From Candidatus Melainabacteria bacterium (lineage in GTDB: Bacteria; Cyanobacteriota; Vampirovibrionia; Obscuribacterales; Obscuribacteraceae), in NCBI GenBank assembly GCA_003153555.1, contig PLZS01000038.1, positions 6,120-70,119 of the forward strand: 64,000 nucleotides of DNA. Direction: 5' to 3'. Both the position numbers and the translations under genes were made by a program. Shown here piece by piece: positions 2,837 to 32,176 of the stretch. The notes beneath the pieces are model-generated. The model saw only the letters and a program-made list of their open reading frames with translations. It was not told the origin of the DNA and did not search any database. Positions within the stretch are counted from its first letter, which is position 1; every line of letters starts with the position of its first letter.

Positions 2837-2847
2837 TATTGGGTCTA

Positions 2848-4933: not shown

Positions 4934-4995
4934 TTACCACGCGGCGCACGGTAAGGCAATAGCGTCTAGTTATACTTGAAACCAACTCAAGATAT

Positions 4996-5971: not shown

Positions 5972-5972
5972 A

Positions 5973-6803: not shown

Positions 6804-6834
6804 AAGGGTCACGCTGATGTTTTGAACGCGCTCG

Positions 6835-7032: not shown

Positions 7033-7056
7033 GAGAATCTCCCATTGGTAGGTTTG

Positions 7057-7638
7057 CTAATAACTGATTAGTGAGAATATTTCGGCATCTTGTGGAAGCT
7101 TTGTGCGTCCGCCCAAAAATGCTAATTCCACGAGAAAGCCGATTCCGACGACATTTGCACCAAGCACTTGCATAAGCTTGTAAGCGGCACCGGCGGTGCC
7201 ACCAGTAGCCAGCAAGTCATCAATTAACACTACTCGATCGTTTTTCTCAACCGCATCGGCGTGCACTTCAATGCAATCAGTGCCGTACTCTAGAGCATAC
7301 TCAAGCTTTTGCACTACATGAGGGAGTTTGCCTGGTTTGCGAATTGGAACGAAACCAACACCCAATTTATAGGCAATGATTGGTCCCAATATGAAACCAC
7401 GGGCCTCAATGCCGGCTATGTATTTTGGATTAAGGGCGCGACACTTCTCAGTAAGCGCATCGATGGCAAATGTAAAAGCGTCAACATCCTTCAGCAGCGG
7501 AGTCAGATCTTTAAACATGATTCCTGGCTTCGGAAAATCTGGAATGTCCCGAATCTTGCTTTTGATCCAATCTTGCTTTTCGGTGCTAAGCGGAAGGCCT
7601 AACTGTTCCAATTTGCTCTTGTCCACTTGGGTACTCAT
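7057..7638 (-). CDS. apt: adenine phosphoribosyltransferase
   Basis: IRDIPDFPKPGIMFKD and PRPP loop VVLIDDLLATGGTA. The start overlaps the recJ 3' end by 53 nt, so it may lie further downstream. Confidence 0.9.
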   Translation of the reverse strand: MSTQVDKSKLEQLGLPLSTEKQDWIKSKIRDIPDFPKPGIMFKDLTPLLKDVDAFTFAIDALTEKCRALNPKYIAGIEARGFILGPIIAYKLGVGFVPIRKPGKLPHVVQKLEYALEYGTDCIEVHADAVEKNDRVVLIDDLLATGGTAGAAYKLMQVLGANVVGIGFLVELAFLGGRTKLPQDAEIFSLISY

Positions 7639-14782: not shown

Positions 14783-14834
14783 GCTGGAGCGCACGCATCT
14801 TGCGTGCTACGAACAATGCGTGCTGGCGCGCTCG

Positions 14835-15677: not shown

Positions 15678-15745
15678 GTGCTGTCCTTCGCTCTTTGTTT
15701 CAATGAATCTATGTGAAATCAACTATAGCAGCTCAATCAATTCGA

Positions 15746-17359: not shown

Positions 17360-17446
17360 TTACAGGGTCAGTGAAATCAATCATCCTCTAACTGATTAAC
17401 TATATCAGCGGCTGACCGAGATGGGTGGAGGTCAAAAATTTAGCTC

Positions 17447-18019
17447 ATGCAGTCAAAGTCAAACACACCCGAATCAAATATTGAATATCCGCCGCTGCGA
17501 TTCCGGCTGTTTATGACAGTGGTGTTGTCGTTTTATTTGTTCTGCCTGATCCTTATTTTGAGCCCTGACTCAGCATTGCGGAATCAACTCTATAAGCCAG
17601 TCTATCCCTTCTTGAGCGCCTTAGGTTTTTGGCAATCATGGAACGTCTTCGCGCCAACAATTAGAACTGAAAATTTTCATTTATTAGCCACAATAACTTT
17701 CACAGATGGCACAACCGCTCTCTGGGAGTTCCCCCGTCAAGACTTACTGACAGGGGTGGAACAGATGCGAGCTGAGCGATTCAGGAAATGGGCAAACGAC
17801 CGCATCAGATATCACGAATACGGATTTTTGCAACCTGACGCAGCAAGATACATCGCGCGCCTACATCACACCGAGTCGGCGCTGCCAAAAACAGTTGAGC
17901 TCACATTCTTTTCTATTCCCATTCCGCCACCGACAGAAGGCATTGACAAAGCTCTGCCCGAACATACTCGGCACAAGACTTTCTTTGTCTATGACGTTCA
18001 GCCCGAGGATCTTAAATGA
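17447..18019 (+). CDS. membrane protein, partner of the HTTM protein
   Basis: One N-terminal TM helix. Its stop overlaps the next start (ATGA, 4 nt), implying translational coupling. Confidence 0.55.
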   Translation: MQSKSNTPESNIEYPPLRFRLFMTVVLSFYLFCLILILSPDSALRNQLYKPVYPFLSALGFWQSWNVFAPTIRTENFHLLATITFTDGTTALWEFPRQDLLTGVEQMRAERFRKWANDRIRYHEYGFLQPDAARYIARLHHTESALPKTVELTFFSIPIPPPTEGIDKALPEHTRHKTFFVYDVQPEDLK

Positions 18020-19083
18020 CAGCAGCGGCAATCTGGCGAGCCTGGAATGAGTTTTGGTTCAAGCCAGGCTCAGCGCTGCCAATGGGGCTGTACCGAATCA
18101 TGTTCGGTGTGATTATTCTCTTGCATCTTGCACTTCTGGCACCTGACTTAAACATATGGTATGGACCAAATGGTGTCGTCAGCGCGGAGACAGTCAAGCA
18201 ATGGCCGTTTGATGTTCTGATCGATCCACTCATGCTGATGCCGCCGACTGAGCAATCGCTGCAACTGTTTATCGGCATTTTTGTGTTGGCAGCTATCTCT
18301 CTAACGCTTGGATTATTCACCAGATTTAGTGCCGCTTTAGTTTTCATCGGACTAACATCGTTTCATCACAGAGATTGGGCAACAATCAACAGCGGCGACA
18401 TCTTCATGCGCCTCGCGGCGCTCTACCTCAGCTTCTCGAACGCCGGGCGAGCCCTGTCACTCGACCGACTAATCGAAGTTTGGACTTCACGAGAATTATT
18501 GACTGGTCCACCTCCGCCTGTGACGATGTGGGTTCATCGTCTGATGCAAGTGCAGTTGAGTTTTCTCTACTGTCAGGCATTTTGGACTAAGACTGTTGGC
18601 GATGTTTGGATCAGCGGCAACGCCTTGTACTATGTAACAAGGCTAGAAGACCTGCGACGATTTTCTCTGCCACCATTTTTGAATAATTTGATCGTTCTGA
18701 AACTGTTGACCTGGTTTACGCTGGCGACTGAATTCGCCTTGTGGACTTTGATTTGGGTTAAGGAATGCCGCTATTGGGTGCTTTTAGCGGGAATGTGCTT
18801 GCATCTAGGAATAGATCTGTTTATGAATCTTCCACTGTTCGAATACCTGATGGTGACTGTCTATATACTGTGGGTCGATCCGAAAGACCTAGTCAACTTA
18901 ATGAGCAAAATTCGATTGTTTATAAAAAGCCTAGTCAAGCAACCGCTCACCTTCACATACGATGGTGCGAATTTAACAAGCGCGCGTAAAGCTGAAACAG
19001 TGCGGCGCTTGGATATATTTCGCATTGTGGAAATAGTAAATACTTCCAAGTTGGATGCACAATCCGCGCCACTTGCACTATGA
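18016..19083 (+). CDS. HTTM (vitamin-K-dependent-carboxylase-like) domain membrane protein
   Basis: WNEFWFKPGSALPMGLYRIMFGVIILLHL is the typical HTTM start, with multiple TM helices. The C-terminal ~60 aa are soluble. Confidence 0.7.
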   Translation: MTAAAIWRAWNEFWFKPGSALPMGLYRIMFGVIILLHLALLAPDLNIWYGPNGVVSAETVKQWPFDVLIDPLMLMPPTEQSLQLFIGIFVLAAISLTLGLFTRFSAALVFIGLTSFHHRDWATINSGDIFMRLAALYLSFSNAGRALSLDRLIEVWTSRELLTGPPPPVTMWVHRLMQVQLSFLYCQAFWTKTVGDVWISGNALYYVTRLEDLRRFSLPPFLNNLIVLKLLTWFTLATEFALWTLIWVKECRYWVLLAGMCLHLGIDLFMNLPLFEYLMVTVYILWVDPKDLVNLMSKIRLFIKSLVKQPLTFTYDGANLTSARKAETVRRLDIFRIVEIVNTSKLDAQSAPLAL

Positions 19084-19188
19084 TACCGAATATGGTGTAA
19101 GCAAACACCCTTCAGGACAGTATTGTGATTAAATTACCGCCCGCAATTGGAAGAATCGGGTATATTGCTTGGGTCAGGTCGAGATTTT

Positions 19189-21438
19189 ATGAACCTCAAC
19201 AACCCCGATAAGCAAAATCTCGAAGATGCTTCGCCAAGCAAGCACTTGCTGTCGAACTTTTACATGCCCGAACCAGGCACGTTCATAGGCAAGTATGAGT
19301 TGCTTGAACAGATTGGGGTTGGGGGAATGAGCATTGTCTTTAAGGCTCAAGACAAAGCACTTAATCGTCTTGTGGCAATTAAGTTCCTTTTGCCACAATC
19401 CAATACGGAAACTATCAACCTACTACGATTTCAGCAAGAAGCTCGAGCCGCCAGCAGCCTCGAACACCCTAACATCGTAAAAATTTATGATTTCAGCACC
19501 ACTTCAGAAGGTATTCCGTTCCTGGTAATGAGTTATTTGGATGGGGTCTCGTTAGCCGATGCCATAAAAATAGAAGGTTCGCTGCCTATTAGTCGCTGGT
19601 TGTCCATCATGATCCAAGCTTGCGATGCTTTAGAACACGCACATCAAAACGGCATCATTCATCGAGATATCAAACCAGGCAATTTTGTTCTTGCTCAGGA
19701 AAAGGGCACTGAAGTTCTTAAGCTTGTAGATTTCGGGATAGCAAAAAATTCTTTCGACGACATGAGCCTAACTAAAACCGGTGACGTTTTTGGTAGCCCA
19801 CTCTACATGAGTCCCGAACAGTGCTCAGGGCTCAAACTTGATTTGCGTTCGGACATTTACTCGTTGGGCTGCGTAATGTATGAGGCGCTGACGGGACGAC
19901 CGCCTCTATCCGGTGACAATTCACTCAGCACAATGCAAAAACATATAGGCGAAAAACCTGAGCCCCTGCAAAAGCTGAGACCCGGAGTAAAAAATATCGC
20001 TTCCATAGACAGAATAGTCATGCGCTGTTTGGAGAAAAAACCAGAAGCCCGATATCAAGATTTGGGTGTCTTGCGCAACGAACTCAATCAAATATTCGTG
20101 GGACAATCATTAACAAATAACTTTTCGCCGCGGCGAATAGCCGCAAGCTTAGGGCTTTTAGCTTTGTTCACTATCACGTCGTGCTGGTTTTACATGGAGC
20201 ATAAGACCCCACCAGCATCCAAGCCCGGACAAAGTGAGTCACTATCTGCGATTGCTACTCCAAAAGCGAGAGATTCAGCTCCAAAAGAATCGATGAATGC
20301 AAAGGATGAAGTAGAAAAGAAAACGAAGCTCGACTCATTGTTGGCACAAGCTAACTACCTGATCACTCATGGTAACAGTGATGCTGCACTCAGACAGTTA
20401 AATGAATCGCTTCAATTAGCCACGGAACTAGGCAAGCCCGCAACGGAATTAGCTCCAATAATCATGCAAATTGCAAACTGCGAACGCGATCTCAAAATTT
20501 TAAGTGCAGGTGAACACTATGAACAGGCATTACATTTAGTGGCAGATGCCGACCTTCCTCCAGACCTGATAGTACAATACGATTGCCAAACGCAATTGGG
20601 AAATTTAGCACTAAACCGCGGTAACCCGGAACAAGCCAAACCACATTACGAGAATGCGTACTTCACGGCTGTGAAGCAAAGAAACATCGAACATCAGGCA
20701 TTGAGCTTTGAAAAACAAGGCGCATGCTCAAAAGCAGAACAAAAGCTAGAAGAGTGCAAAAAAGAATGGACGACTGCTTTGAAGATAATGCCGAATAATC
20801 CGAAGCTCCTAGACAAACTCAATGAGCTTCTCCGAAGGCAAGGCAAGCCAGAAATAACGGATGCCAATGTGCGAAGTTCACTAAACGAGGCAGATACAGT
20901 AAAAAAGCTCTACGCGGAAGGAGAGTCTTTTCTTAAAGCCGAATCATACAAACAAGCAGAGGAAAAATACAAACAAGCATTGCAGCAAATTATCGAGCAT
21001 AAAAATGGTCCACAGCAGATGGCAGTGATTCTGAGCCAGTTAGGGCAGGCTGAATCTAGACTGAGCGAAGGACAAGCCGCAAAGCGAGATTTTCTCAGGG
21101 CACTATATTTGGTATCGGGGAGCGACACCAAAGCAGCGCAACGATGTAAATTCACAATCCTTGTAGGCTTGGGCCGACAATCCAGGATCGCTGGCGACAT
21201 GCCCAAAGCGAAAAAGTATTATTCACAACTGTATGAATACTCAACCGAACTGGAGAAAAAAGCGAGCAGTGAAAAAGAACTGAAACCAATAGATGGTCTG
21301 AAAGCAGATGCCTTAGCTCAATTAGGAGAATGTTCCTTCGCGGAACACGATTTTGCAGAATGTGCAAAGTATTGGCGGCAATCGATAGAAATTCGACCTA
21401 ATGCAGACCTGCAGAAACGCCTGAAAGATCTGCACTAA
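19189..21438 (+). CDS. Hanks-type Ser/Thr protein kinase with TM segment and C-terminal TPR-like region
   Basis: GVGGMSIVFKA, HRDIKPGN, DFG, SPEQ. A TM helix (LGLLALFTITSCWFYM) and a helical repeat region follow. The ORF opens at TTG 19147; ATG 19189 is chosen. Confidence 0.85.
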   Translation: MNLNNPDKQNLEDASPSKHLLSNFYMPEPGTFIGKYELLEQIGVGGMSIVFKAQDKALNRLVAIKFLLPQSNTETINLLRFQQEARAASSLEHPNIVKIYDFSTTSEGIPFLVMSYLDGVSLADAIKIEGSLPISRWLSIMIQACDALEHAHQNGIIHRDIKPGNFVLAQEKGTEVLKLVDFGIAKNSFDDMSLTKTGDVFGSPLYMSPEQCSGLKLDLRSDIYSLGCVMYEALTGRPPLSGDNSLSTMQKHIGEKPEPLQKLRPGVKNIASIDRIVMRCLEKKPEARYQDLGVLRNELNQIFVGQSLTNNFSPRRIAASLGLLALFTITSCWFYMEHKTPPASKPGQSESLSAIATPKARDSAPKESMNAKDEVEKKTKLDSLLAQANYLITHGNSDAALRQLNESLQLATELGKPATELAPIIMQIANCERDLKILSAGEHYEQALHLVADADLPPDLIVQYDCQTQLGNLALNRGNPEQAKPHYENAYFTAVKQRNIEHQALSFEKQGACSKAEQKLEECKKEWTTALKIMPNNPKLLDKLNELLRRQGKPEITDANVRSSLNEADTVKKLYAEGESFLKAESYKQAEEKYKQALQQIIEHKNGPQQMAVILSQLGQAESRLSEGQAAKRDFLRALYLVSGSDTKAAQRCKFTILVGLGRQSRIAGDMPKAKKYYSQLYEYSTELEKKASSEKELKPIDGLKADALAQLGECSFAEHDFAECAKYWRQSIEIRPNADLQKRLKDLH

Positions 21439-21475
21439 CAGTTCACGGCTTGCTGATACAAGGTTTTGACAGGCT

Positions 21476-21724
21476 CTAGTCAGGCCAGGGTTGCACCAAT
21501 TTTTTCTCGCCTGGTTTCAATCCACCGAGATGTTTCAGCACGTCATCGTAATACTTGTCGCCAACCTTGTATTTCGTCCTAGAATCCACGTTCATTCCGT
21601 CAGCAGTCCTTCTCATTTGCAACACGATTGCTCCGTTTTCATCTAACCAAGCTTCGCCGATGGCATTTAGATTGGCATTCTGAACATCATCTGACACTGA
21701 TCCACCGCCGCCAGCATCAGTCAT
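21476..21724 (-). CDS. small cytosolic paralog of the C-terminal domain of the 24530..25024 protein (chimeric N-terminus)
   Basis: NLNAIGEAWLDENGAIVLQMRR..DG....Y.VGDKYYDDVLKHLGGLKPGEKKLVQPWPD aligns along its length with the last ~67 aa of the 164-aa protein. Its first 9 codons (MTDAGGGGS) are identical to codons 36-44 of the 25008..26480 protein. Confidence 0.6.
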   Translation of the reverse strand: MTDAGGGGSVSDDVQNANLNAIGEAWLDENGAIVLQMRRTADGMNVDSRTKYKVGDKYYDDVLKHLGGLKPGEKKLVQPWPD

Positions 21725-21783
21725 GGTGCCGGTGCTCAGTCCATGTCTCGCCAGGTCGAGGCCGAGAGCGAAGCGGCATGCGA
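21697..21783 (-). repeat. remnant of the 5' end plus upstream leader of the M34-like gene
   Basis: 21697..21742 is identical (46/46) to 26348..26393. 21743..21783 matches 26479..26519 at about 36/41. The ~85 nt that separate these blocks at 26.4 kb are missing here. Confidence 0.85.
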
Positions 21784-21957
21784 GTTATCAACGATGGTAA
21801 GATTCAGCAAAGATTCATTTCATAAGTTAGTCGTTGTCAGGATTTAATCCTTGGGTCATACGATCTGGACAGTTAATTCAGTTAATTGGCAGACCAGACA
21901 GATCTCCATCTGCGAGGATATATTTGGAAGGCATCTTAAACACAAAACCGACTGGTA

Positions 21958-23544
21958 ATGCTTGTGGTTGGCAAACGGACTGAGAACACTGCCAATACAA
22001 ATGATCTTTGCACGACGTGTGGTCTAAAGAGCGGCACCAGTGGCTCGATGACAACATGGATTTTGCGGGGCGGCCGCTGCAAATGCAACATCGACGCCGT
22101 TGCCAGGCAGACGTCAAATGGACAGATACTTACCAGGCCGGTTGGTGCTCAGGGAAGCCGCCCAGCAGGACGCGTCTTGAATGAGCGATATCAGCTTTTG
22201 GAACCAGTCGGGCGCGGTGGCGTGTGCCTTGTATACAAGGCCGAGGATTTGACAACCAAAGAGGTAGTCGCCCTCAAACTCATGCGCCCGGAGTTTGCTG
22301 AGCATGAGCAGGCGGTACAACGTCTGATAAAGGAAGTCGACACAGCGGCCCAGTTGATTCACCAAAATCTGGTGCGAGTGCATGGATATGGACAAGATCG
22401 CAAGGGTGAGTCTTATCTTGTCATGGATTTCGTAGCCGGAGAAAACCTGGATGAGCTGATGATTAAGAGCGGAGGGAGACTAGAACCTCGACGCGCTCTG
22501 GAAGTATTCACTCAAATTTGCGAAGGTCTCAAGTGTGCACACGCGCATGGTGTGATTCACCGTGATCTCAAGCCCAGCAACATCATCATTACCCCAGAAG
22601 CCGGCGGGCGCGAAACAGTGAAAATAGTTGACTTCGGGTTTGCCAAGTTGACTGAAACCGGTGATAGCTCTCTAAGATTGACCCAGACAGGTGAGGTATT
22701 TGGCAGTCCCTTCTATATGAGTCCGGAACATTGCCTTGGCAAAGAGCTTGACGCGCGTTCGGATATCTACTCTCTGGGCTGTCTCATGTATGAAACACTT
22801 TCAGGCTGCCCGCCACTGAAGGGAGATAACGTGTTGGCGACTGTCGCTAAACAGGTCACAGAAGAACCAGCGAGCATGCGCACTCTCCATCGATCCATTT
22901 CTGAAAGCCTGGACAACGTGGTGCTCAGGTGCCTGGCAAAAGAACCGGTGCTTAGATATCAGTGCGTGTCCGATTTGCTGTCGGATCTGCACAGTCTAAG
23001 GAGTGGAAAGCACATAAAAGCACCGCTTAAAGCGGCAAAACGACCTTCTTATGAGGTCAAGTCTCTGAGAATCAGAGAAATGTCTGGGTTCAAATGGGCT
23101 GGGCTTCTCCCCACGTTGCTGACCATCGTGCTGTCTGGGTCCGTTGCACTTGTCTTCATGTCCATGCACAAACCTGCTACCACAGCTGTGATCACTCCGG
23201 CAGCTGTGATCAGTCCGGCGCGGAAGAACCTCAAGCCAAAAACGAACCCCAAAACGCATCTTCCTTCGCTCCAGGCAGGAAATGCTTCAAGCATTACTGG
23301 GTTGACAGACAAGACGCAAGGAGCTACTAATCCAGGTCCTGTCGAGCCAAGCAAAGCAACCGAGCGCTCCGGCTTGAGACCACAATTGATTCATGTTGCT
23401 GTTGCTGCACCTTTGCACCACGTCGACCGAAGCCCAAAGCGCGCAGCATTGCCTAAACCTCGACCTGCAAAAAAAATAGCGCCAACATCCAAAGAATCGT
23501 CCAAAGGCTGGGCCGAACTGAAGGAACTCAGAACCGACAGATGA
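21958..23544 (+). CDS. Hanks-type Ser/Thr protein kinase with N-terminal 4-Cys motif, TM segment and basic/Pro-rich tail
   Basis: GRGGVCLVYKA, HRDLKPSN, DFG, SPEH. N-terminal CTTCG..(18)..CKC; TM helix LLPTLLTIVLSGSVALVFM. Confidence 0.85.
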   Translation: MLVVGKRTENTANTNDLCTTCGLKSGTSGSMTTWILRGGRCKCNIDAVARQTSNGQILTRPVGAQGSRPAGRVLNERYQLLEPVGRGGVCLVYKAEDLTTKEVVALKLMRPEFAEHEQAVQRLIKEVDTAAQLIHQNLVRVHGYGQDRKGESYLVMDFVAGENLDELMIKSGGRLEPRRALEVFTQICEGLKCAHAHGVIHRDLKPSNIIITPEAGGRETVKIVDFGFAKLTETGDSSLRLTQTGEVFGSPFYMSPEHCLGKELDARSDIYSLGCLMYETLSGCPPLKGDNVLATVAKQVTEEPASMRTLHRSISESLDNVVLRCLAKEPVLRYQCVSDLLSDLHSLRSGKHIKAPLKAAKRPSYEVKSLRIREMSGFKWAGLLPTLLTIVLSGSVALVFMSMHKPATTAVITPAAVISPARKNLKPKTNPKTHLPSLQAGNASSITGLTDKTQGATNPGPVEPSKATERSGLRPQLIHVAVAAPLHHVDRSPKRAALPKPRPAKKIAPTSKESSKGWAELKELRTDR

Positions 23545-23598
23545 GAATGGGCGACCTCCTTCGATGGCTGGTGTGAATTGACGGAACGAGGAGAGCAA

Positions 23599-24369
23599 AT
23601 GAGAAAGGCAACCTTCATCGCAATCACTCTTTGGTTAGTTCCGTTGGTTTCGCAGATAGTCTATGCGCAGACAACGGCAGATCTTGAGAGTTTGGTCACC
23701 AAATCCAAGCTTGTAGATACTACACATCCCGTGAGAGCGATGATCAGTAGTGACAAGCAGCAGGTAAGTATTTCGACATTTTGCCGCGCCCAAACAACAG
23801 ACAAAGATTGCAAAATCACGGCGCTACTTATGATGAAAGAGCTCATGCAACGCTATAAAACTGTTCATGGGATAAGAGTAACCTTCTTCGATGAAGTAAA
23901 TCCTCATCACAGCAGGACCGTTCGGACAACAGAAGGGGATGCACTGCTAGTCGACAGCGGCAAACCTGTACACGAGGTTCTTGCTTTGATCGATATTTCA
24001 TATGGCGACGTCCGTCCCCGCACCACAGTGGAATCATCCAAGAAGCAATCGAATTTGGCTGCCAACCCTGCCACACCTGCTTCCGGCGTCAATGGCACTT
24101 GGACATCTGGTACTGCACTCGTAATCATTCAGCAATCAGCCGGTTCGCAGATTTCTGGATTCTGGAGTCAAGAAGGGGTGTCACACAAACTGAGGGGATC
24201 ATATAATTCCCGGACACGCATTCTGGACCTCTCCTTCGAGCAACTACAAAGTGATGATCGACCACCCACAACTGGCAGGTTTGAGTTGACCAGAGATGGT
24301 AAAGAGCTTGTTGGCAGCTGGAAAGTAGGTGGAGAAACAGGAAACGTCAAGTTGTACAAGGTTGGATAG
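23599..24369 (+). CDS. hypothetical secreted protein
   Basis: ATG 23599 is preceded by GGAGAG. Signal peptide MRKATFIAITLWLVPLVSQIVYAQ. No known domain recognised. Confidence 0.55.
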   Translation: MRKATFIAITLWLVPLVSQIVYAQTTADLESLVTKSKLVDTTHPVRAMISSDKQQVSISTFCRAQTTDKDCKITALLMMKELMQRYKTVHGIRVTFFDEVNPHHSRTVRTTEGDALLVDSGKPVHEVLALIDISYGDVRPRTTVESSKKQSNLAANPATPASGVNGTWTSGTALVIIQQSAGSQISGFWSQEGVSHKLRGSYNSRTRILDLSFEQLQSDDRPPTTGRFELTRDGKELVGSWKVGGETGNVKLYKVG

Positions 24370-24373
24370 ATAG

Positions 24374-24508
24374 AACGCTCACGGGATTGTCCAGGTCATA
24401 GTCAATCTCTTGTCGAATGCTATTAAGTTCTCGGACGCAGGGTCAGTTGTGACTATTGCTCGCGCTCAAAAGAGAAATCTGCAGGAACGCTCGAACGCTC
24501 TTCACTAA
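24374..24508 (+). pseudogene. histidine-kinase fragment (N-box of the HATPase domain only)
   Basis: A startless 44-codon frame reads NAHGIVQVIVNLLSNAIKFSDAGSVVTIARAQKRN... Compare NLLSNAIKFSP in the intact kinase at 32927..34717. It has no H-box and no G-boxes. Confidence 0.45.
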
Positions 24509-24529
24509 ACGGTTTGCTGATCTTCGTTT

Positions 24530-25024
24530 CTAGTCAGGCCAAGGTAGCACTAATTTTTTCTCGCCCGGCTTCAATCCACCGAGATGTTTCATGACTTCAT
24601 CGTAGTTCTTGTCGCCAACTGGATAATGCAAAGTCCCATCAGTCGGCCTGCCGTCAGCGTCTCTGCGCATCCGAAGAACGATGGTGCCCTTTTCGTCTAA
24701 CCAGGCTTCGCCTAATGCATTCAGATTCGCATTCGCCGACTCAGTCTCTTCTGACACATGACCTCCTTTTTTTGAAGCCGCTGAACATCTGCTTTTCATA
24801 ATGTCCAGAGCGTTAAAAACTGGCGTCGCGTCCTTGCTCACATCATGTTGCGTAACGCACTTATCCATATTTTTCCCCTTTGTCGCACACTTATCGCCGG
24901 ACACTTCTTTTACAACCTTCTCGCCTTGTTTTTCTTTAGCCTCAACAAGGTCAACACTGCAAAAACAAACGAGCAAAAGACTCATGCAAAACGTGAATAG
25001 CTGCCATCTATTGTGGAACTTCAT
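24530..25024 (-). CDS. small secreted protein, candidate inhibitor/immunity/chaperone partner of the M34-like protein
   Basis: Signal peptide MKFHNRWQLFTFCMSLLLVCFCSVDLVEA. The start overlaps the upstream stop by 17 nt. The C-terminal ~67-aa domain is duplicated at 21476..21724. Confidence 0.65.
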   Translation of the reverse strand: MKFHNRWQLFTFCMSLLLVCFCSVDLVEAKEKQGEKVVKEVSGDKCATKGKNMDKCVTQHDVSKDATPVFNALDIMKSRCSAASKKGGHVSEETESANANLNALGEAWLDEKGTIVLRMRRDADGRPTDGTLHYPVGDKNYDEVMKHLGGLKPGEKKLVLPWPD

Positions 25025-26480
25025 TCATTCTCTTCCGAACGTAGTCGATAGTATTGGGATAGGTTTGCATGATCTGATCCATTTGCGACTGATTAGCCGG
25101 TCCGCCGTTTATGGCAGCAAAAGTTTCGGCGAAAGCTTCTGACCTGCCTCCCTTTGCCTGAACAAGATATTGCTCCCTTAATTTCGTTTCGGGCGACATA
25201 GCTGCCACATCTTTGTCGTAAGCCGCCTTAAACTCTGGTGAGTTAGAAGGATAGTCTAGAGCATGATCAACAGCATGTCCGCCCTCATGCCTCACCGCAC
25301 CAGCGTCGCGATTTGACGGACCTGATGAAGTATATTCGGCTACCACAGCAGTACGTTTCTCGGGGAAATAGGAACCTTCAATATCGGCATATGTCGAACC
25401 TACAGGATGACCTGGTGGACGCTTTCCTTCTAGTTCGGGCATTGCCCCGACAAGAGTGCCCGCAATTAAAAACTTGGCACCACTATCTGCGAGCAGCTTT
25501 TTAGTCGAGGCAGGAAGTTGAGCAATATCAGCCTTCACTTTTTCAGCAAAATCCTCACTTGCACCCTTAACTTCAACTACCGGTCCAACGCGCTCGCCTT
25601 TATCATTCACCGTTGTTTCGGAATACTCTAAGTTCTTTTTCTGATCATGCTGAGTGGTCGTGCCGTCTTTGTTCTTGGTCGTTTCAAAGTAACTTCCATC
25701 TGCTCGGGTAACTCTGTCACGAACGACATTGCCTGATGGATCGGTAGTCTCAGTCGTGGAACCGCCACCATCCTTAATATCATTTACGGTGTGGACGGTT
25801 GTTGATGTTCCGTTTTTGTCCGTTAGAGTTTCGACGTAGCTACCATCCTTCTTTTGGTCGTGGAATGTAGTAGAGTTGTCCGGATTTAATTTGCGTTCGG
25901 TGTAGCTATGATCAGCATTTTCAGATTTTCTATCTGTCACCAAACCGGCTTTGTTACGTGTGGTAGTTTCGGTTTTTCCATCAGCACCAACGCTGGTATC
26001 AGTGAAACCACCATCAGGATTAGTGACATGGCTTTTCGATGTGACTTTGCCATCTTGAGTTAGATTTGTTTCGCTAAAATCCCCGTTCGCCTTCTGTTCA
26101 CGAACTTTGACGGAGTGGTCTTTGGGATCGAGCGTTTGCTCGCTGAAACTTTTGTCAGGATTATCGGTGCGATTCTTAATTGCTTGACCCGATTTGTCGA
26201 ACGTGGTCGTGTCAATCGAACCACTCATTCGTGTTGAAGAGTCAGTATGCCCCCCGTCAGTATTCTTTTTGCTACTTCGAAGCATCACTTCGTCGGGCCC
26301 GCTATGGTCGGGAGTTGCACCCTTTTTGGCTTTGCCGTCGACGCCATCTGATCCACCGCCGCCAGCATCAGTCATGGTGCCGGTGCTCAGTCCTGCATAC
26401 TGTTGGTTTGGATAAACAGGCTTTTCATTAAAACTGACGTCGCCCGAAGTTGTACCTTTCTTCGGACCGGTACTCTCCAT
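25008..26480 (-). CDS. repeat-containing protein with C-terminal M34 (anthrax-LF / Pro-Pro endopeptidase-like) zinc metalloprotease domain
   Basis: The C-terminus reads LPASTKKLLADSGAKFLIAG..PELEGKRPPGHP..EGSYFPEKRTAVV..VRHEGGHAVDH..GGRSEAFAETFA (HExxH plus a downstream Glu in an EaFAE context). The N-terminal ~300 aa are D/T/S/K/G-rich degenerate ~23-aa repeats. No signal peptide. Confidence 0.7.
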   Translation of the reverse strand: MESTGPKKGTTSGDVSFNEKPVYPNQQYAGLSTGTMTDAGGGGSDGVDGKAKKGATPDHSGPDEVMLRSSKKNTDGGHTDSSTRMSGSIDTTTFDKSGQAIKNRTDNPDKSFSEQTLDPKDHSVKVREQKANGDFSETNLTQDGKVTSKSHVTNPDGGFTDTSVGADGKTETTTRNKAGLVTDRKSENADHSYTERKLNPDNSTTFHDQKKDGSYVETLTDKNGTSTTVHTVNDIKDGGGSTTETTDPSGNVVRDRVTRADGSYFETTKNKDGTTTQHDQKKNLEYSETTVNDKGERVGPVVEVKGASEDFAEKVKADIAQLPASTKKLLADSGAKFLIAGTLVGAMPELEGKRPPGHPVGSTYADIEGSYFPEKRTAVVAEYTSSGPSNRDAGAVRHEGGHAVDHALDYPSNSPEFKAAYDKDVAAMSPETKLREQYLVQAKGGRSEAFAETFAAINGGPANQSQMDQIMQTYPNTIDYVRKRMNEVPQ

Positions 26481-26519
26481 GTCTCGCCACGTTGAGGCAG
26501 AGAGAGAAGCCGCATGCGA

Positions 26520-27422
26520 CTACGGACCTTCGTGGCCGGGGCTAGGACCAGGACCGGGACCGGGACCAGGACCGGGACCAGGACCAGGACCGGGACCAGG
26601 ACCGGGCCCAGGACCGGGCCCAGGACCGGGCCCAGGACCAGGACCAGGCCCGGGCCCAGGACCAGGACCAGGCCCAGGACCGGGCCCAGGCCCAGGACCG
26701 GGCCCAGGACCGGGTCCTGGCCCACTAGGCGGAGGGCAGGTCGGAGGCGGGTTGTTGCACAGACCTGGCACCTCTGATGGTTGTCCGAACAAAACCTGTT
26801 GATGCTCACGATCGAAGACATCATCAGGCACAGACGACTGCAAATTTAGAATCGGATAGAGATAACTGCTTTCAAAAGTAAGAGAGCCGTTACCGTTGTC
26901 TCCGGTAAACTGAGCGCCACCAAAAAAGAAGATCGGTGCGGGTAACGACACCTGCAAGCGGGTTGCAATGAAGACCGTCGGTTGATTATCAGGATCAATT
27001 GGATTTGCTGATCCGAATGGTTTGACACCATTGTAGATAAATTTCGACACCGTTAAATTCTTGATGAACTGACCATCGACCCTTTGATGGGCTGTGAGCG
27101 CATTCGTCGCTGCGGCTTGTGCTTTACTCGGCGGTGCGATCCCAGCGGCCCTCGCCGCATCTCGGCACGCCTCATTGTTGACACCATTGGCAATTATTAG
27201 AACCGCAACGTCAGCACAAAGCAACGTCAGCACAATAAAGAAAAACGAGCCTACAGCCAGCTCCACTGCTGACATACCTCGACTCCGACTCGCAAGTTGA
27301 TTTGAAGCACTCGGGACGAGTGCGCTCCATTTCGTTTTTAAGGTGCGAGATCTCGAAGCACTAGCTCCGAGTGCGCTCCATTTCGTTTTAGAAGTGTGTG
27401 CTTTTGCTTTCATGCTATTCAA
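26520..27422 (-). CDS. TadE-like pseudopilin with proline-rich (GP)30 C-terminal tail
   Basis: Prepilin-like junction SRG|MSAVELAVGSFFFIVLTLL, with Glu at +5 and a hydrophobic helix. The C-terminus reads CNNPPPTCPPPS(GP)nSPGHEGP. The start overlaps the tadG-like stop by 8 nt. Confidence 0.7.
   Translation of the reverse strand: MNSMKAKAHTSKTKWSALGASASRSRTLKTKWSALVPSASNQLASRSRGMSAVELAVGSFFFIVLTLLCADVAVLIIANGVNNEACRDAARAAGIAPPSKAQAAATNALTAHQRVDGQFIKNLTVSKFIYNGVKPFGSANPIDPDNQPTVFIATRLQVSLPAPIFFFGGAQFTGDNGNGSLTFESSYLYPILNLQSSVPDDVFDREHQQVLFGQPSEVPGLCNNPPPTCPPPSGPGPGPGPGPGPGPGPGPGPGPGPGPGPGPGPGPGPGPGPGPGPGPGPGPGPGPGPGPGPSPGHEGP
26545..26724 (-). repeat. 30 tandem hexanucleotides (GGNCCN) encoding Gly-Pro dipeptides
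   Basis: Counted directly: ggacca/ggaccg/ggccca/ggcccg/ggtcct units, 180 nt, in frame with 26520..27422. Synonymous positions vary between units. Confidence 0.95.
27304..27390 (-). repeat. 51-nt-period tandem duplication inside the pseudopilin leader
   Basis: gaagcactcgggacgagtgcgctccatttcgttttta and gaagcactagctccgagtgcgctccatttcgtttta. At protein level, KTKWSAL..SASRSR occurs twice. Confidence 0.7.
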
Positions 27423-29736
27423 TCAACTGCACAAGACTTCTTGAGACCTGTAAGAATGCCTGACTAATCGCGTTCACCTGTCCGCCACCAGGGGCGATGA
27501 TGCTGTTCTTATTGACGGCAAAGAAACGGGCACCATTTCCGGACAGTTTAGCAAGACCTATGTTTGCCGGCGGTATTGTAAATTCGTCACCTAAAAATGG
27601 CACTTGAAGGTTTTCCACAGTCAGATTCTGCCCAACACCGATTGTGTAAATCGGCACACCATCAGTGTTCGCACGACCTGCTTCCAGTCGTGACTGCGAT
27701 TGAGCCAGTGCTAAGTCTGAGGTGCCATCTTTGGCGCGAGTGGCAATTCCATCTGTAATCAAAATAACGCATTGCCTGGCATATGCTTTGCGAGGACTGG
27801 CGCTCATAATATCCAACGCATCTTCGAGAGCCTTCGCGACGTTCGTTGCCCTTAGTGGCACCAAATAATTTTCAAAGACATCGTTCATGGTCAAGTCAGG
27901 TTTATTACTGTCAGTTGGATCTGGCACCAAATCCACTTGTGGATCTTTCAACGGAGTCAACGGCATCCGCAAAATCGGGTACTTCTTGGAACCAGGAGGT
28001 GGTGAGGGGTAATTCGGTGAGCTCGTATTGATATCGACAGGGCAGATGACAGGCTGATTGTAGGCAATATCCGGCAGTGCAATGTTGGTAACACTTGGAG
28101 TGCCTTGGGCTGCGAAAGTCTCAAAGGCAACCAATCCGAAATTGACGTCGGCACCAGCTCCGTTCAAAGCAAGATAGAAATTTTCCAGAGCGTCGACAGT
28201 GCAGGCAATCGGCTGACTGTAAAAACCAACCATTTCAAAATAGGCAGATTGATAGCCATCTTTGCCCTGGGTAGGTAATTCTCCCGCGGCGATATTGTTT
28301 TTGAATACCGTGTTTCTTAGCTGATTGAAACGAGATATTTCGAGGTTTCCTCGTTCCGCTTCAACCAAATAAGCGATGCCATCAAAGGTATAAGACTGCC
28401 CTTTGAATGGTTCGCGCTTTTTGACGTATGTAAATCGATTCGGTCCCGCCCCAGGAATTGCGGTCTGCGGTAAAGACAAACCAAATATCGGTTGAGCAGG
28501 GTTAACGTTGATTTGATTGTCTAGTTTGACGATCAAATCCGTAAATCCAGATGGCGCGTTAGGACAAGCGCAGCCATAATTTGATGGATATCCAGGTCCA
28601 AGGTTTCCGCCGCACGGAAAATTACCAGGATCTGCACCTGGATTTGTGCCACCACTTTCCTGGTATGCACGCTCGGCATAATTAAATGTGGGCAAATTTG
28701 GATTGGCTGGTGGCATAAACTGTCTTTGCCAGTTCACTAGATTCAAATTTTGCGGATATCGAGTGTTTACAGGCAAACCATCTGGAGACAAGGGATTGAA
28801 CAAACAATCCGCAAGAGTGCCGTTTTGCACTTGCCCATATTCCAGCTTGCCTTTCTGATCGGCGAGATTCGTCCTCAATGTTTTATATTGGATCCACTTC
28901 GCGCTGGCCGTGGCATAGTATCCAGCGCAAACGTTTGGATCATAATTAGGACTACCGATATATGACTGCAAAGTCTGCAACGACGCCAAATAAATGTTAT
29001 AAGAATCGTTGATCTGATTGCGTTCTGGCTCAGGAATTGTGAATCTGCGGTTGACGAAAGAGACGCGCGTCGAATCATCCATCGAACCAGACACATCGAA
29101 GCACACCACCACATCTAATACCGGCACACCAGCTGTCGCTCTGCTCACGATTGGCACGAGAGAACCAAGTCCAAGAAACTTCGAGAAAGCGGGCCGAGCT
29201 GTGAACTGAGCGGAAACTCGCACCGCTTTGGCTCGATCTGAAGTTGGATCCACGACTTGAAGGTTGCCCGGATCAACCGTTTCAACTTTATATGTGCAAT
29301 CGCCAGGCTGAGTACCCAGGCTGAGGGTGCCCGCTCGTCCAACATTTGTTGCAGTCCGCAAAGTGCTTCCAAGCACGTCGTTCAATTGCGCATTAGTTTG
29401 TTGAAACGTACTCTTAAAGGCGTTTTCTGCAGCCTTTGTCGCTTCGTTGAAACGCAACACTCTATCTTGTTTGCGCTGATATCGCGACGTAACAAGCATC
29501 GCCGCTCCGGCAAGAGCAGCTGAATCACAGTTGGCATTGAGCTGATTCACACCGTGCTGGTAGCGCGCAATTTCAAAGGAGAAAATTCCGATCAACGGAA
29601 TAATAATCAAGCCAACTAAAATACTCAGCGCAACAACGCCTTGCCCGACAGTTTTTCGTGATTGAGATCTGATTATCATGATGCTCGCGCTGACTATCGA
29701 CAATAATTGCCCCATAATACGGAGCGTTCGTGACAT
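27415..29736 (-). CDS. TadG-like pilus-assembly protein with von Willebrand factor A domain
   Basis: Tad N-terminal region GQGVVALSILVGLIIIPLIGIFSFEIARY...CDSAALAGA. MIDAS VVVCFDVSGSMDD and a distal ILITDG motif. Confidence 0.8.
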   Translation of the reverse strand: MSRTLRIMGQLLSIVSASIMIIRSQSRKTVGQGVVALSILVGLIIIPLIGIFSFEIARYQHGVNQLNANCDSAALAGAAMLVTSRYQRKQDRVLRFNEATKAAENAFKSTFQQTNAQLNDVLGSTLRTATNVGRAGTLSLGTQPGDCTYKVETVDPGNLQVVDPTSDRAKAVRVSAQFTARPAFSKFLGLGSLVPIVSRATAGVPVLDVVVCFDVSGSMDDSTRVSFVNRRFTIPEPERNQINDSYNIYLASLQTLQSYIGSPNYDPNVCAGYYATASAKWIQYKTLRTNLADQKGKLEYGQVQNGTLADCLFNPLSPDGLPVNTRYPQNLNLVNWQRQFMPPANPNLPTFNYAERAYQESGGTNPGADPGNFPCGGNLGPGYPSNYGCACPNAPSGFTDLIVKLDNQINVNPAQPIFGLSLPQTAIPGAGPNRFTYVKKREPFKGQSYTFDGIAYLVEAERGNLEISRFNQLRNTVFKNNIAAGELPTQGKDGYQSAYFEMVGFYSQPIACTVDALENFYLALNGAGADVNFGLVAFETFAAQGTPSVTNIALPDIAYNQPVICPVDINTSSPNYPSPPPGSKKYPILRMPLTPLKDPQVDLVPDPTDSNKPDLTMNDVFENYLVPLRATNVAKALEDALDIMSASPRKAYARQCVILITDGIATRAKDGTSDLALAQSQSRLEAGRANTDGVPIYTIGVGQNLTVENLQVPFLGDEFTIPPANIGLAKLSGNGARFFAVNKNSIIAPGGGQVNAISQAFLQVSRSLVQLIE

Positions 29737-29875
29737 ATTTCCTTCAGAGCGGCAGATTACCGAAGTTTAATCCGCTCCAAAATCAATGTCAACCTCACAA
29801 TGGAGTTACGGCAACGGTATCAGGAATTAACTCCTGCATGCACGTTCTGCATGCCCGTACTTTCCGGCAAAACGA

Positions 29876-30493
29876 ATGACCAAACCGAACTGGATGAAAA
29901 TACTAGCAATCTCCTGTTTGATCGCCTGGTTTTTGGCAATCAGCCTGGTCAATTTGCTGAATAAAAAGACTCCTCCTAAACTGATGACTGCCGACACTCG
30001 TTGGTCGAAGTTGGCTGCAGAACAGGCGAAGCTCGAGTCGCAGACCAGCACACTAACTGAGCAAAACATTGATTCAGCACGCCGGTTGGTATCAAATTAC
30101 TCACAACAAAATCAATTTGAGAAAGCTGAAGCGCTGGCAGAAAAGGTTTCGAATCTATCTGGTAATAATTCATTGAACGACCTTGAAACACTTGCCGCTG
30201 TCGAAAGACAAAAAGGTGATTACAAGAAGAGCATCCATTTTCTTGAAACCATTGCCGCGCTTGATCAACACGATGTATCAAGATCAGCACGAGACCAAAT
30301 CAACCTGGGGACAATGCACTATTTAAGTGGACTTTCGCTGGAGAATGTAGCAGAGAGAAAATCTAGTTTTCTTAAGGCGGAGGAATGTTTCACTAGTGCA
30401 GAGAAGCAGTTACCATCAGGTTCCGAGAAGACGGCGCAGTATATTGCGCTGAGACAGAATAAAGCTTTGAACGAGCGAGAACTGAGAAAATAA
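29876..30493 (+). CDS. membrane-anchored helical-repeat (TPR-like) protein
   Basis: N-terminal TM helix (ILAISCLIAWFLAISLVNLL), then a helical region. It is wedged convergently, with zero spacing, against the tadE-like gene. Confidence 0.45.
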   Translation: MTKPNWMKILAISCLIAWFLAISLVNLLNKKTPPKLMTADTRWSKLAAEQAKLESQTSTLTEQNIDSARRLVSNYSQQNQFEKAEALAEKVSNLSGNNSLNDLETLAAVERQKGDYKKSIHFLETIAALDQHDVSRSARDQINLGTMHYLSGLSLENVAERKSSFLKAEECFTSAEKQLPSGSEKTAQYIALRQNKALNERELRK

Positions 30494-31063
30494 TTACAAC
30501 ATCAAACCCTTGGGATTTTCAAACACACGTTGTCCGTGGATTGCTAGCGGAAACGGTGCGGTCAGTCCAGGGATGTCGCCGAGCCAGCCGCCTTTGTAGC
30601 TGAGAAGTGGGTCTGTTTCAGCTCTTACAAGTACATCAATGTAATAGGTGTGTCCGTCTTGAGGACGTGAAGTTAGTGGTGCATACGTTGGGCCAACTTT
30701 GGCGCCACTTGCGTTGTCGATGTCGACAATGCCGGTTTTGACATCAATCACGCGAGCGCCACTGAATGAGTTCAGGTAGCGGTTAACTTCGGTACGGGCT
30801 ACAAATTCGGCTGGTACGTTGTTCGCCAAAGTTCCGGCTGGTACGTTGGCGGCAACTCTGTAGGTCAGTGCCTTGCACGCTCTTTCCGATCCCACCTTCG
30901 CGGAGTTCATCACGAAGCAAGCACGCATGCCCATGGCGCCGAGGTTCATAAGCGGAAAGGTTAGGAAAATGAAGAAGACTGCGAGTAACATCGCTGATTC
31001 GGCCAACGCTTGACCACGACAAGACCGCATTCCGAGCTTTGCTTGGGAATTCATTTTAGCCAC
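30494..31063 (-). CDS. TadE-like pseudopilin
   Basis: MRSCRG|QALAESAMLLAVFFIFLTFPLMNLG: Gly cleavage context, Glu at +5, hydrophobic helix. Confidence 0.7.
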   Translation of the reverse strand: MAKMNSQAKLGMRSCRGQALAESAMLLAVFFIFLTFPLMNLGAMGMRACFVMNSAKVGSERACKALTYRVAANVPAGTLANNVPAEFVARTEVNRYLNSFSGARVIDVKTGIVDIDNASGAKVGPTYAPLTSRPQDGHTYYIDVLVRAETDPLLSYKGGWLGDIPGLTAPFPLAIHGQRVFENPKGLML

Positions 31064-31402: not shown

Positions 31403-32080
31403 CTACCAATCGAAAGCGGCTTCTTCTTCCTCTGACTCAGGCTCAAATTCCGAATCAGATTCTGAATATTCGCCATGCTCGCGAACCAAACCGGATCCGT
31501 CTTCTCGCCTCGGCCAATCTACTCCTTCATAAATCGCATCGAGAGACATTTCCAGTGCTCCGGAGGGAATTGATTCTAGTTTTATCTTTCCGCTCACCAC
31601 CGGTTCGAAAATATCCCAGTGCTGTTCGTGGTTTTTACGATGCAGCTGAACCATTTGCTTTTTTTGATGTGCTAAAAGATATTCTTGAACCGACTCAATC
31701 TGCCTGTAGGCGACAAGCTTCTCACGTCGATCAATTACAGCAGTAGAAGGAGATAAGACCTCAACGATGAGCACTGGATTGGTTGCGAAAAGGTCTGTGC
31801 CTTTGAAGGCGCCACATGCCACTACAACGTCAGGATAGTAAATGCTGTTAGCTTTTACGACGCTAACCTTCACGTCATTCGTGTACGCTCTACACGGACC
31901 ACCCTGGAGATGCGCCCGCAAGGCGCAATAAATGTTGCCGATAATGAGCGTGTGTCTTACTGTCGCCCCGGTCATGGCAAACGTTTGTCCATCCACGTAC
32001 TCATGGCGCACGGACGCGTGCTCTTCCTGAGCCAAGTATTCGTCAATGGTTAAGAACAATCTCTTAGTAGTAGTAGACAT
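31403..32080 (-). CDS. Uma2-family (DUF820) PD-(D/E)xK-like endonuclease with acidic tail
   Basis: EYVDGQTFAMTG.T..H, YYPDVVV and IVEVLSPSTAVIDRREKLVAYRQIESVQEYLL. The tail reads SESDSEFEPESEEEEAAFDW. Start placed at MSTTTKRL; the ORF extends to 32152. Confidence 0.8.
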   Translation of the reverse strand: MSTTTKRLFLTIDEYLAQEEHASVRHEYVDGQTFAMTGATVRHTLIIGNIYCALRAHLQGGPCRAYTNDVKVSVVKANSIYYPDVVVACGAFKGTDLFATNPVLIVEVLSPSTAVIDRREKLVAYRQIESVQEYLLAHQKKQMVQLHRKNHEQHWDIFEPVVSGKIKLESIPSGALEMSLDAIYEGVDWPRREDGSGLVREHGEYSESDSEFEPESEEEEAAFDW

Positions 32081-32176
32081 ACGAGCGCCCCTGAGTCCCA
32101 AGTAACTATTATACGCCCAAGGCGCTAATGGATAAATCCGTCTATCTGGCATAATAGCTGGCCAGGAGAATACAGC

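Follow-up and report, generated by a model that had tools for sequence, protein, structure and literature searches.

The locus described here raises the question of why a gene for a metallopeptidase, followed by a gene for a small exported protein, should stand directly behind two minor-pilin-like genes of the Tad type. It lies on a 64,000-nucleotide (nt) stretch of DNA from a Candidatus Melainabacteria bacterium (GenBank assembly GCA_003153555.1, contig PLZS01000038.1, positions 6,120 to 70,119 of the forward strand). This full stretch is called the window, coordinates are window positions, and homologues of its proteins placed it in Candidatus Obscuribacterales, which are non-photosynthetic Melainabacteria/Vampirovibrionia. 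A first, sequence-only reading had seen in the four genes a module for trimming a pilus or an adhesin or, alternatively, a toxin/immunity pair riding on a pseudopilin operon. All five minus-strand open reading frames (ORFs) of that reading were recovered at its coordinates by an ORF check, including the four contiguous genes with junctions of -8, +39, and -17 nt. The ORFs of the TadG-like protein of 773 amino acids (aa; TadG773) and of the TadE-like protein of 300 aa (TadE300) share 8 nt (27415-27422), a 39-nt gap (26481-26519) separates the TadE300 stop from the start of the 490-aa peptidase protein, and the ORFs of the peptidase and of its 164-aa partner share 17 nt (25008-25024). The four genes probably represent two independent units, a pilin cluster and a toxin-like peptidase with a neutralising partner, which were brought together by a lineage-specific rearrangement.

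Sequence comparison indicated that the adjacency of the Tad and peptidase genes is a recent accident, which exists in the window lineage because of an insertion. From 13.6 to 31.1 kb the window was gene-for-gene collinear with the related loci L010 and L011 (TadG 78% identical), in the order trypsin-like protease, TPR protein, HTTM-domain protein, two kinases, TadE, TadG, TPR protein, and TadE. Only 21476..21724 and 23578..26519 were extra in the window relative to L010/L011. The inserted block sits directly after the TadE stop codon and comprises the peptidase, the partner, and a gene for a 263-aa protein, which had no match in Pfam or NCBIfam and was missing from the syntenic loci L010-L013. 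At 21409..21783 the cassette was identified a second time, in a degenerate form that is internally deleted with the partner domain intact. By blastn, 24479..24734 matched 21409..21680 with 72% identity. The kinase-TPR gene (763 aa) located there truly ends at 21438, and its segment 21409..21438 is the original of a 30-nt relic found at the border of the inserted block. The peptidase leader was also recognizable twice (21729..21783 against 26467..26519, 85% identity), with the likeness stopping at the TadE stop codon, and 21697..21742 was 100% identical to 26348..26393 over 46 nt, corresponding to peptidase codons ~30-45. The orphan partner protein of 82 aa encoded in this second copy consists of peptidase codons 36-44 (MTDAGGGGS) fused to the partner domain; it matched the C-terminus of the 164-aa protein with 69% identity (tblastn) and the partner profile at 2.7e-46. 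The orphan gene (21476..21724) is convergent to the kinase-TPR gene (19147..21438). Judged by eye, its product seems to resemble P0022, which comes from a different organism, more than it does the 164-aa protein nearby. The cassette was probably copied from the site by the kinase genes to the position directly after the TadE stop codon.

The tight junctions of the four genes thus illustrate that a recent insertion can create an operon-like arrangement. Within the 39-nt spacer there was no promoter-like match and only a weak 5-bp hairpin, and scans for promoters and terminators gave nothing above shuffled background that convincingly separated or joined the genes. Co-transcription of the pilin genes and the cassette is plausible from the sequence, and the inserted cassette probably relies at present on pilin-operon read-through. 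The TadE300 stop codon (TAG) and the peptidase start are in frame, 13 sense codons apart (26478..26522). A broken TadE-peptidase fusion and stop-codon read-through were both considered and rejected, as the final residues of TadE300, EGP, match the natural EDP ends of its relatives.

Linkage was surveyed from both sides. A TadG-profile scan of one genome per species gave 65 TadG-like loci (L045-L109, 1.12 Mb), nearly all from Obscuribacterales or Melainabacteria, often with several per genome and up to three per assembly. None of these 65 loci contained the partner or a Tad-peptidase operon. A gene with the ATLF peptidase domain (Pfam PF07737) was present in one (L054), 5 kb from TadG; it encodes a signal-peptide protein behind a response regulator and an oxidoreductase, and was not accepted as Tad linkage. 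The loci of the TadG orthologues that were 78%, 59%, and 49% identical contained no peptidase-partner cassette and kept a block of TadE-like gene, TPR gene on the opposite strand, TadG, and TadE with a tail. From the other side, a metagenome scan with the partner profile gave 31 loci, 18 of which were informative (enough upstream sequence), and no Tad genes were found in the 31 partner loci or, within 10 kb, in the seven loci with orthologues of the peptidase. The Tad-peptidase gene order was therefore conserved in no relative examined, a result that the sequence-only reading had itself named as grounds for giving up its trimming module.

According to the trimming explanation, the proline-rich tail of TadE300 (candidate stretch LCNNPPPTCPPPSGPG), or TadG773, would be the substrate of the M34 peptidase in the course of pilus release or remodelling, and the 164-aa protein would be an inhibitor or chaperone. 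This agrees with the contiguity of the four genes, with the lack of a convincing promoter or terminator between TadE and the peptidase, and with the characterised Pro-Pro endopeptidases (PPEPs), which cut adhesins encoded beside them (PMC8610288); the peptidase clade is nearer to PPEPs than to anthrax lethal factor (LF), and most of its members have a PPEP-like S-loop motif. Moreover, TadE tails in Obscuribacterales are often poly-Pro, and both genes occur in at least one relative's genome, though unlinked: assembly GCA_038322035.1 carries the pilin cluster on contig 45 (L011) and a homologue of the peptidase on contig 69 (L006). Set against these points are an adjacency that is confined to the window lineage and made by insertion, the absence of the operon from all 65 TadG-like loci, and a peptidase without a signal peptide where the pilin tail is extracytoplasmic. 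The substrate also fits poorly, in that the tail is (GP)30, PPP occurs only in NNPPPT/CPPPS, and the P3' Pro common to PPEPs is wanting, and the peptidase-partner pair is elsewhere joined to type VI spike proteins and not to pilins. Trimming is on balance very unlikely, and the new way of regulating pili that a Tad-protease module would have represented is not upheld.

The tail itself had been described correctly as proline-rich. It is an uninterrupted (GP)30 (aa 234-293), and its coding DNA forms an imperfect 6/12/18-nt repeat (26536..26714). TadE orthologues at the same place had (GP)n, T-rich, (SPT)n, (PQ)n, or poly-Pro tails with no protease nearby, and long proline-rich low-complexity tails, such as (GP)n, (PQ)n, poly-Pro, or (APAPKP)n, were present in 16 of 55 downstream TadE proteins, including all close orthologues. 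Within this TadE subfamily the proline-rich tail is a widespread trait of older date, and it occurs with no protease close by.

The peptidase protein was analysed by structure prediction and profile searches. An AlphaFold model built on 20 homologues (pLDDT 85) divided it into a disordered region with a conserved motif (residues 1-60), a single-layer array of beta-hairpin repeats with ~21 strands (residues 61-305), and an alpha/beta domain, the zinc peptidase (residues 306-490). With Foldseek, the repeat region matched OspA-type single-layer sheets, and the C-terminal domain matched PPEP-3, PPEP-1, and PPEP-2 with probability 1.00, target-normalised TM values of 0.65-0.71 over ~197 columns, and root-mean-square deviations of 3.6-4.1 A; LF was a weaker match. 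Searched against the PDB, the profile of the peptidase domain found PPEP-1 (5e-13), PPEP-2 (5.5e-12), PPEP-3 (8e-10), and LF (2e-7). A single-sequence PDB search with the 490-aa protein (phmmer) reached PPEP-2 only marginally (E = 0.09), so the clade profile was needed for the PPEP/LF assignment. Pfam ATLF scored 26.6 bits with the full-length protein and 29.3 bits with the isolated domain, the cut-off being 27.4, and was matched by 13 of 15 clade members (best 1.4e-16). The motif letters in the protein are RHEGGHAVDH and GGRSEAFAETFA. Residues H398, E399, H402, Y438, and E448 were invariant in 20 sequences and aligned in the profile-PDB alignment with H142/E143/H146, Y178, and E185 of PPEP-1, in which HExxH is followed by the Tyr of the oxyanion site and by the Glu that is the third zinc ligand. 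The M34 layout of HExxH and a downstream Glu reported in the sequence-only reading was thereby borne out, and on sequence and model the C-terminal domain is confidently assigned as an M34/ATLF peptidase that is closer to PPEPs than to LF and has all catalytic residues. The protein is modular, its disordered N-terminus and beta-hairpin stalk leading to a C-terminal zinc endopeptidase domain of PPEP/LF type whose catalytic set is complete.

The designation PPEP in the strict sense (EC 3.4.24.89) was rejected for this protein. Its E value of 0.09 compares with the published limit of <= 1e-25, at which the PPEP family is confined to Firmicutes (PMC8610288), it has no Sec signal peptide, and its S-loop residues differ from the Lys/Arg101, Trp/Tyr103, and Trp110 that touch the P1/P1'/P3' prolines. 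The S-loop reads P-P-G-H...T-Y, and many clade members have P-[KR]-G-[WY]...T-W. The N-terminus, MESTGPKKGTTSGD..., contains no hydrophobic segment and hence no Sec signal peptide, and the N-terminal 300 residues matched nothing in Pfam or NCBIfam. Orthologues were found as stand-alone genes in seven loci (L001-L007; 39-52% identical). A small TPR gene is convergent downstream of the peptidase orthologue in six of these seven loci, and a xanthine-dehydrogenase-type cluster adjoins it in four.

A recurrent companion of such peptidase genes is the partner gene. In 10 of the 18 informative metagenome loci an ORF with the ATLF domain stood directly upstream of the partner on the same strand. In L009, a 1.2-kb contig, the ATLF gene ends 17 nt inside the partner start, exactly as in the window. 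The partner was also downstream of the ATLF gene in L111/L112, where the peptidase (P0014) matched the 490-aa protein over 72% of its length, beyond the peptidase domain, and had two partner genes behind it, of which one encodes a signal peptide and the other does not. Partners of both kinds, exported and non-exported, occurred likewise in L026, L027, and L041, in partner-first order, and the two-partner loci (L026, L027, L041, and L111) are mirrored by the 164-aa and 82-aa proteins of the window; the 82-aa copy, which has no signal peptide, would supply a cytoplasmic version of the partner. A small gene directly downstream of the peptidase was thus conserved in the window, L009, L111/L112, and 10 metagenome loci, and was missing in the seven orthologue loci. 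The conserved unit is peptidase plus partner and not Tad plus peptidase.

The company kept by the pair was that of toxins. The partner-linked peptidase of L036 is a VgrG fusion with the Pfam domains Phage_GPD, Phage_base_V, Gp5_trimer_C, and ATLF, and those of L022, L033, and L038 are PAAR+ATLF fusions. MuF-ATLF fusions (P0010 and P0012) belong to the same clade, and a phage portal gene adjoins the one in L110. A 69-aa ORF after the MuF-ATLF gene of L110 was examined as a possible partner and not counted, its likeness being faint (RIEGPGGMLGD, ~0 bits). ALF-type metallopeptidases are a catalogued polymorphic-toxin domain (PMC3482391), and fusion to a trafficking module, by which polymorphic toxins are recognised, was observed in the clade and not in the 490-aa protein itself. 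In view of the conserved adjacency, the translational overlap, the signal peptides, and the PAAR/VgrG fusions of the peptidase clade, the ~65-aa domain of the partner would be a cognate binder through which the peptidase is probably neutralised outside the cytoplasm, the partner serving as immunity protein or inhibitor. The toxin/immunity pair that the sequence-only reading had offered as its alternative is accordingly the best supported of its proposals, on the strength of the conserved peptidase-partner pairing and of the PAAR/VgrG fusions.

The same observations admit an ordinary secreted protease with a self-protecting inhibitor, serving nutrition, predation, or matrix remodelling and not acting as an interbacterial toxin. 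The exported partner would then shield the envelope of the producer, as AprI does for AprA; AprI is the periplasmic inhibitor of the signal-peptide-less alkaline protease AprA of Pseudomonas. Such an enzyme would not be intrinsically self-toxic, which fits the lack of a partner in most Obscuribacterales orthologues, and it would need no type VI or other toxin-trafficking domain, none of which was found on the 490-aa protein; the signal peptide of the partner and the paralogue in L054, a plain signal-peptide peptidase, point the same way. The PAAR, VgrG, and MuF fusions of the clade are, to the contrary, hallmarks of toxin delivery, an orphan partner amid toxin-gene relics and duplicated partners are toxin hallmarks too, and an N-terminal region followed by repeats and a C-terminal enzyme is the polymorphic-toxin layout (PMC3482391). 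The ordinary-protease explanation is considered unlikely, with a weight that is still appreciable.

The partner was characterised as a family of its own. The 164-aa protein has a hydrophobic, signal-peptide-like N-terminal segment (MKFHNRWQLFTFCMSLLLVCFCSVDLVEA|KEK; helix 6-18 in the model), in keeping with its earlier description as a signal-peptide protein, followed by a disordered linker and a C-terminal domain of ~65 aa that ends in KLVLPWPD. The domain matched nothing in Pfam or NCBIfam, and in ten family members scanned with Pfam no match ran through it. A word-indexed search found only three relatives, and an exhaustive HMMER search found 1,103 cluster representatives (50% identity) at E <= 1e-3 and 386 at <= 1e-10. 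Members were mostly 70-220 aa long, some were tandem, and one (P0060) was fused to a Ser/Thr kinase; in P0060 the partner domain forms the C-terminus behind the Ser/Thr kinase and TPR parts. The partners in the metagenome loci mostly had signal peptides or lipoboxes.

The C-terminal tail of the partner was near-invariant, with ...KPVPP[WF] in most members and VLPWP in the window. It was compared with the residue at the W103 position of the accompanying peptidase in L015, L022, L027, L031-L033, L036, L038, L041, L111, L009, and the window, a small sample in which lineages are not independent. Trp was found together with VPP[WF], His with V[LQ]PWP (window and L009), and Tyr with V[KR]PF (L111). 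This co-variation suggests that the tail sits in the proline-binding cleft of the peptidase as a pseudo-substrate, in which case the PVPP[WF] tail of most partners, and VLPWP here, may fill the active-site cleft. The fuller idea of a non-Firmicute clade of Pro-Pro-type endopeptidases that are used as toxins and blocked by an inserted PVPP[WF] pseudo-substrate tail is put forward tentatively, as a possibility whose chances are clearly below even.

Several results weigh against the preferred reading of a toxin-like peptidase with a neutralising partner. The partner gene was absent within 10 kb of all seven peptidase orthologues, which would be odd for a self-toxic effector. The 490-aa protein has no PAAR, VgrG, or MuF domain and no signal peptide, and no evidence of a type VI system was met in this lineage. 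Relative to PPEP-1, its S-loop is changed in K101->P, W103->H, and W110->Y, and since W103H strongly lowers the activity of PPEP-1 (PMC12828418), the specificity and even the activity of the protein are uncertain. The partner model was confident in residues ~100-164 alone, and its fold had no PDB match at E <= 0.001 (Foldseek), so that no known inhibitor or immunity fold could be named. Finally, the partner domain stood alone in 8 of the 18 informative loci and occurred also in tandem arrays and in the kinase fusion P0060, and by its distribution it is not exclusively an immunity module. The partnerless orthologues, the missing trafficking domain and signal peptide, and the partners found alone are what keep the plain protease-inhibitor explanation alive.

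The other unit, the pilin cluster, was examined by profile searches, in which Pfam TadE and PF13400 were matched by some relatives and not clearly by the window proteins themselves; the TadE-like and TadG-like calls were retained. In TadG773, a hydrophobic pilin-like segment at the N-terminus is combined with a vWA domain whose MIDAS motif DxSxS (CFDVSGSMDD) is intact, and D214, S216, and S218 were invariant in the homologue alignment. Its Pfam VWA match was marginal (5.1e-5, 24.0 bits against a cut-off of 23.8). Its homologues are Candidatus Obscuribacterales proteins, several of them with PF13400 (Tad) and VWA; PF13400 did not match TadG773 itself and was present in P0037, a homologue with 49% identity, and in several remoter ones. 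TadE300 remained sub-threshold for Pfam TadE (8.7e-4, 19.8-20.5 bits against a cut-off of 22.9), which was matched by 5 of 15 members of its family (best 2e-8), and contains a conserved CNNPPPxCPPP motif. N-termini of the prepilin-peptidase type (Gly at -1, Glu at +5, hydrophobic helix) were present in TadE300 (RG|MSAVE) and in the 189-aa protein TadE189 (RG|QALAE, then a hydrophobic helix); that of TadG773 (VG|QGVVA) is without Glu at +5. TadE189, the product of the second TadE-like gene of the sequence-only reading, had no match in Pfam or NCBIfam. A profile-profile comparison with the TadE300 family was positive (hhalign 95.5%, E 1.3e-8), and an orthologue 77% identical occupies the same place in L010/L011; its label as TadE stands on this match, the prepilin-type motif, and the conserved position alone. 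The TPR protein encoded between TadE189 and TadG773 matched Pfam TPR_12/TPR_2 under the gathering cut-offs and has an orthologue (60-61% identical) at the same place in L010/L011, and TPR genes also flank TadG in L012 and L054.

Among the 65 TadG-like loci, TadE-type genes of two kinds were found in 53 and 61, the latter being homologues of TadE189, and no secretion-ATPase Walker motif was detected within 10 kb of any of them. By these sequence criteria, the pilin unit is an orphan Tad minor-pilin cluster that is conserved throughout Candidatus Obscuribacterales, away from the assembly ATPase. By analogy with the 'Tip' trios KilLMN of Myxococcus, it would most likely make up a complex for the tip or for the initiation of a Tad-type pilus. 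The window itself was said to lack Tad machinery, and this held true: Pfam scans of 30 further window ORFs of at least 150 aa, besides the cluster and its neighbours and with a few short ORFs left out, detected no CpaF/TadA, TadB/C, secretin, prepilin peptidase, or other Tad or type IV pilus component, a motif scan found no small Flp-like prepilin in the window, and no secretion-ATPase Walker A motif was present in it. Large proteins are encoded beside the cluster in some relatives. L010 (6666..8465) and L011 (2951..4750) have there, unlike the window, a 599-aa protein without a signal peptide that contains RHS repeats (Pfam 1.5e-8) and a Cys/His-containing C-terminal domain. In L013, a 2,691-aa protein (394..8469) is encoded 1.5 kb upstream of the TadG orthologue (49% identical); it has an ATLF-like domain with HEFAGH for HExxH and a second copy without the first His, and both look degenerate.

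A further explanation would have the Tad tip-like cluster present or deliver the adjoining toxins, with the peptidase as cargo of a Tad-type contact-killing pilus. Toxin-like neighbours occur in three of four distinct close loci (the ATLF gene of the window, the 599-aa RHS-repeat protein of L010/L011, and the 2,691-aa protein of L013), and a Tad-like pilus of Myxococcus with interchangeable minor-pilin tips does carry out contact killing (PMC12075869). These three neighbours are, however, mutually unrelated and differ in position, and in the wider set an ATLF gene was within 10 kb in 1 of 65 TadG-like loci and the partner in 0 of 65. The in-frame spacing of the TadE stop and the peptidase start would arise by accident in one case in three, and the C-terminus of TadE is natural, with no sign of a broken fusion. 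The peptidase is thus highly improbable as pilus cargo. The broader proposal that orphan Tad tip-like clusters of Obscuribacterales are contact-dependent toxin-delivery platforms with recruited adjoining toxin genes depends on the three unrelated toxin-like genes and the one-in-three frame coincidence, and is regarded as the least probable of all. The preferred reading of two independent units is retained.

The features of the locus are collected in Table 1. Among the genes around it, the trypsin-like protease, the TPR and HTTM-domain proteins, and several TPR-tailed Ser/Thr kinases encoded at 13619..23544 and 36564..38825 form a block that is conserved and syntenic with L010-L012. Two genes of the Uma2 family (putative restriction endonucleases) are present at 31403..32152 and 51861..52496, the first of which marks the end point of synteny with L010.

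Table 1. Positions of the pilin cluster, the inserted cassette, and its second copy in the window.
Feature	Position	Strand
Minor-pilin-like protein, 189 aa (TadE189); remote TadE/TadF-like member of the conserved pilin trio	30494..31063	-
Small TPR protein, 205 aa; conserved within the pilin cluster	29876..30493	+ (opposite strand)
TadG-like large minor pilin, 773 aa (TadG773)	27415..29736	-
TadE-like minor pilin, 300 aa (TadE300)	26520..27422	-
(GP)30 low-complexity tail of TadE300	26544..26723	-
39-nt spacer; forms the peptidase 5' leader and the left edge of the inserted cassette	26481..26519	-
Toxin-like peptidase protein, 490 aa, no signal peptide	25008..26480	-
HEGGH zinc-binding/catalytic motif (H398, E399, H402)	25275..25289	-
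Exported partner, 164 aa; predicted immunity protein or inhibitor	24530..25024	-
C-terminal ~65-aa partner domain within the 164-aa protein	24533..24733	-
Relic (30 nt) of the kinase-TPR 3' end; marks the right edge of the duplicated segment	24479..24508	+
Signal-peptide protein, 263 aa; lineage-specific, within the inserted block	23578..24369	+
Orphan partner, 82 aa, no signal peptide; chimera	21476..21724	-
Peptidase-gene relics (leader, start codon, codons ~30-45) lying upstream of the orphan partner gene	21697..21783	-

On the preferred reading, the pair would join the effector-immunity systems already known. A clade of PPEP/LF-like zinc peptidases extends beyond Firmicutes as the C-terminal module of toxin-like proteins, among them type VI PAAR/VgrG fusions. 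Its recurrent downstream partner belongs to a family of small domains that is widespread (about 1,100 clusters at 50% identity) and outside Pfam and NCBIfam, and the conserved proline-rich tail of this partner suggests a testable pseudo-substrate inhibition. Candidatus Obscuribacterales, for their part, have multiple orphan TadE-TadG-TadE clusters with proline-rich tails that resemble the 'Tip' modules of Myxococcus.

Among known peptidases, the 490-aa domain has in common with PPEP-1 (Zmp1 of C. difficile), PPEP-2, and PPEP-3 (MEROPS M34) the fold, the HExxH motif, and the equivalents of Tyr178 and Glu185. The PPEPs are secreted stand-alone enzymes of ~200 aa from Firmicutes, whereas here the domain forms the C-terminal part of a 490-aa protein that has no signal peptide, has a dedicated partner gene, and comes from a cyanobacterial lineage that is not photosynthetic. 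With anthrax lethal factor and the Tox-ALFMPTase domains (Zhang et al. 2012, PMC3482391) it shares ATLF (PF07737), the C-terminal position after repeat or trafficking modules, the PAAR, VgrG, and MuF fusions in the clade, and a small gene directly downstream. Differences are that the 490-aa protein itself has no recognised trafficking domain and that the immunity protein catalogued for Tox-ALFMPTase is Imm-SuFu (PMC3482391), a domain different from that of the window partner.

A counterpart in mechanism is VgrG2b of P. aeruginosa, an HExxH metallopeptidase toxin that acts in the periplasm and is neutralised through a complex with PA0261, a small immunity protein with a signal peptide whose gene is directly downstream of VgrG2b (PMC6899460). 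The likeness to the window pair, which is proposed from sequence, is in mechanism only: VgrG2b was not among the PDB matches of the peptidase profile, and neither the peptidases nor the immunity proteins showed detectable sequence kinship. The pilin cluster has its closest parallel in the minor-pilin trios KilL/KilM/KilN of Myxococcus ('Tip' clusters), which are encoded away from the core machinery (PMC12075869). In contrast to KilLMN, the window cluster has a vWA domain on the large pilin, a proline-rich tail on one small pilin, and an embedded TPR gene. Like KilLMN and TadE/F/G, it comprises a trio with prepilin-type N-termini, one of them large with an extra C-terminal domain, and, as in Myxococcus, several paralogous clusters occur per genome, away from the ATPase, platform, and secretin genes.

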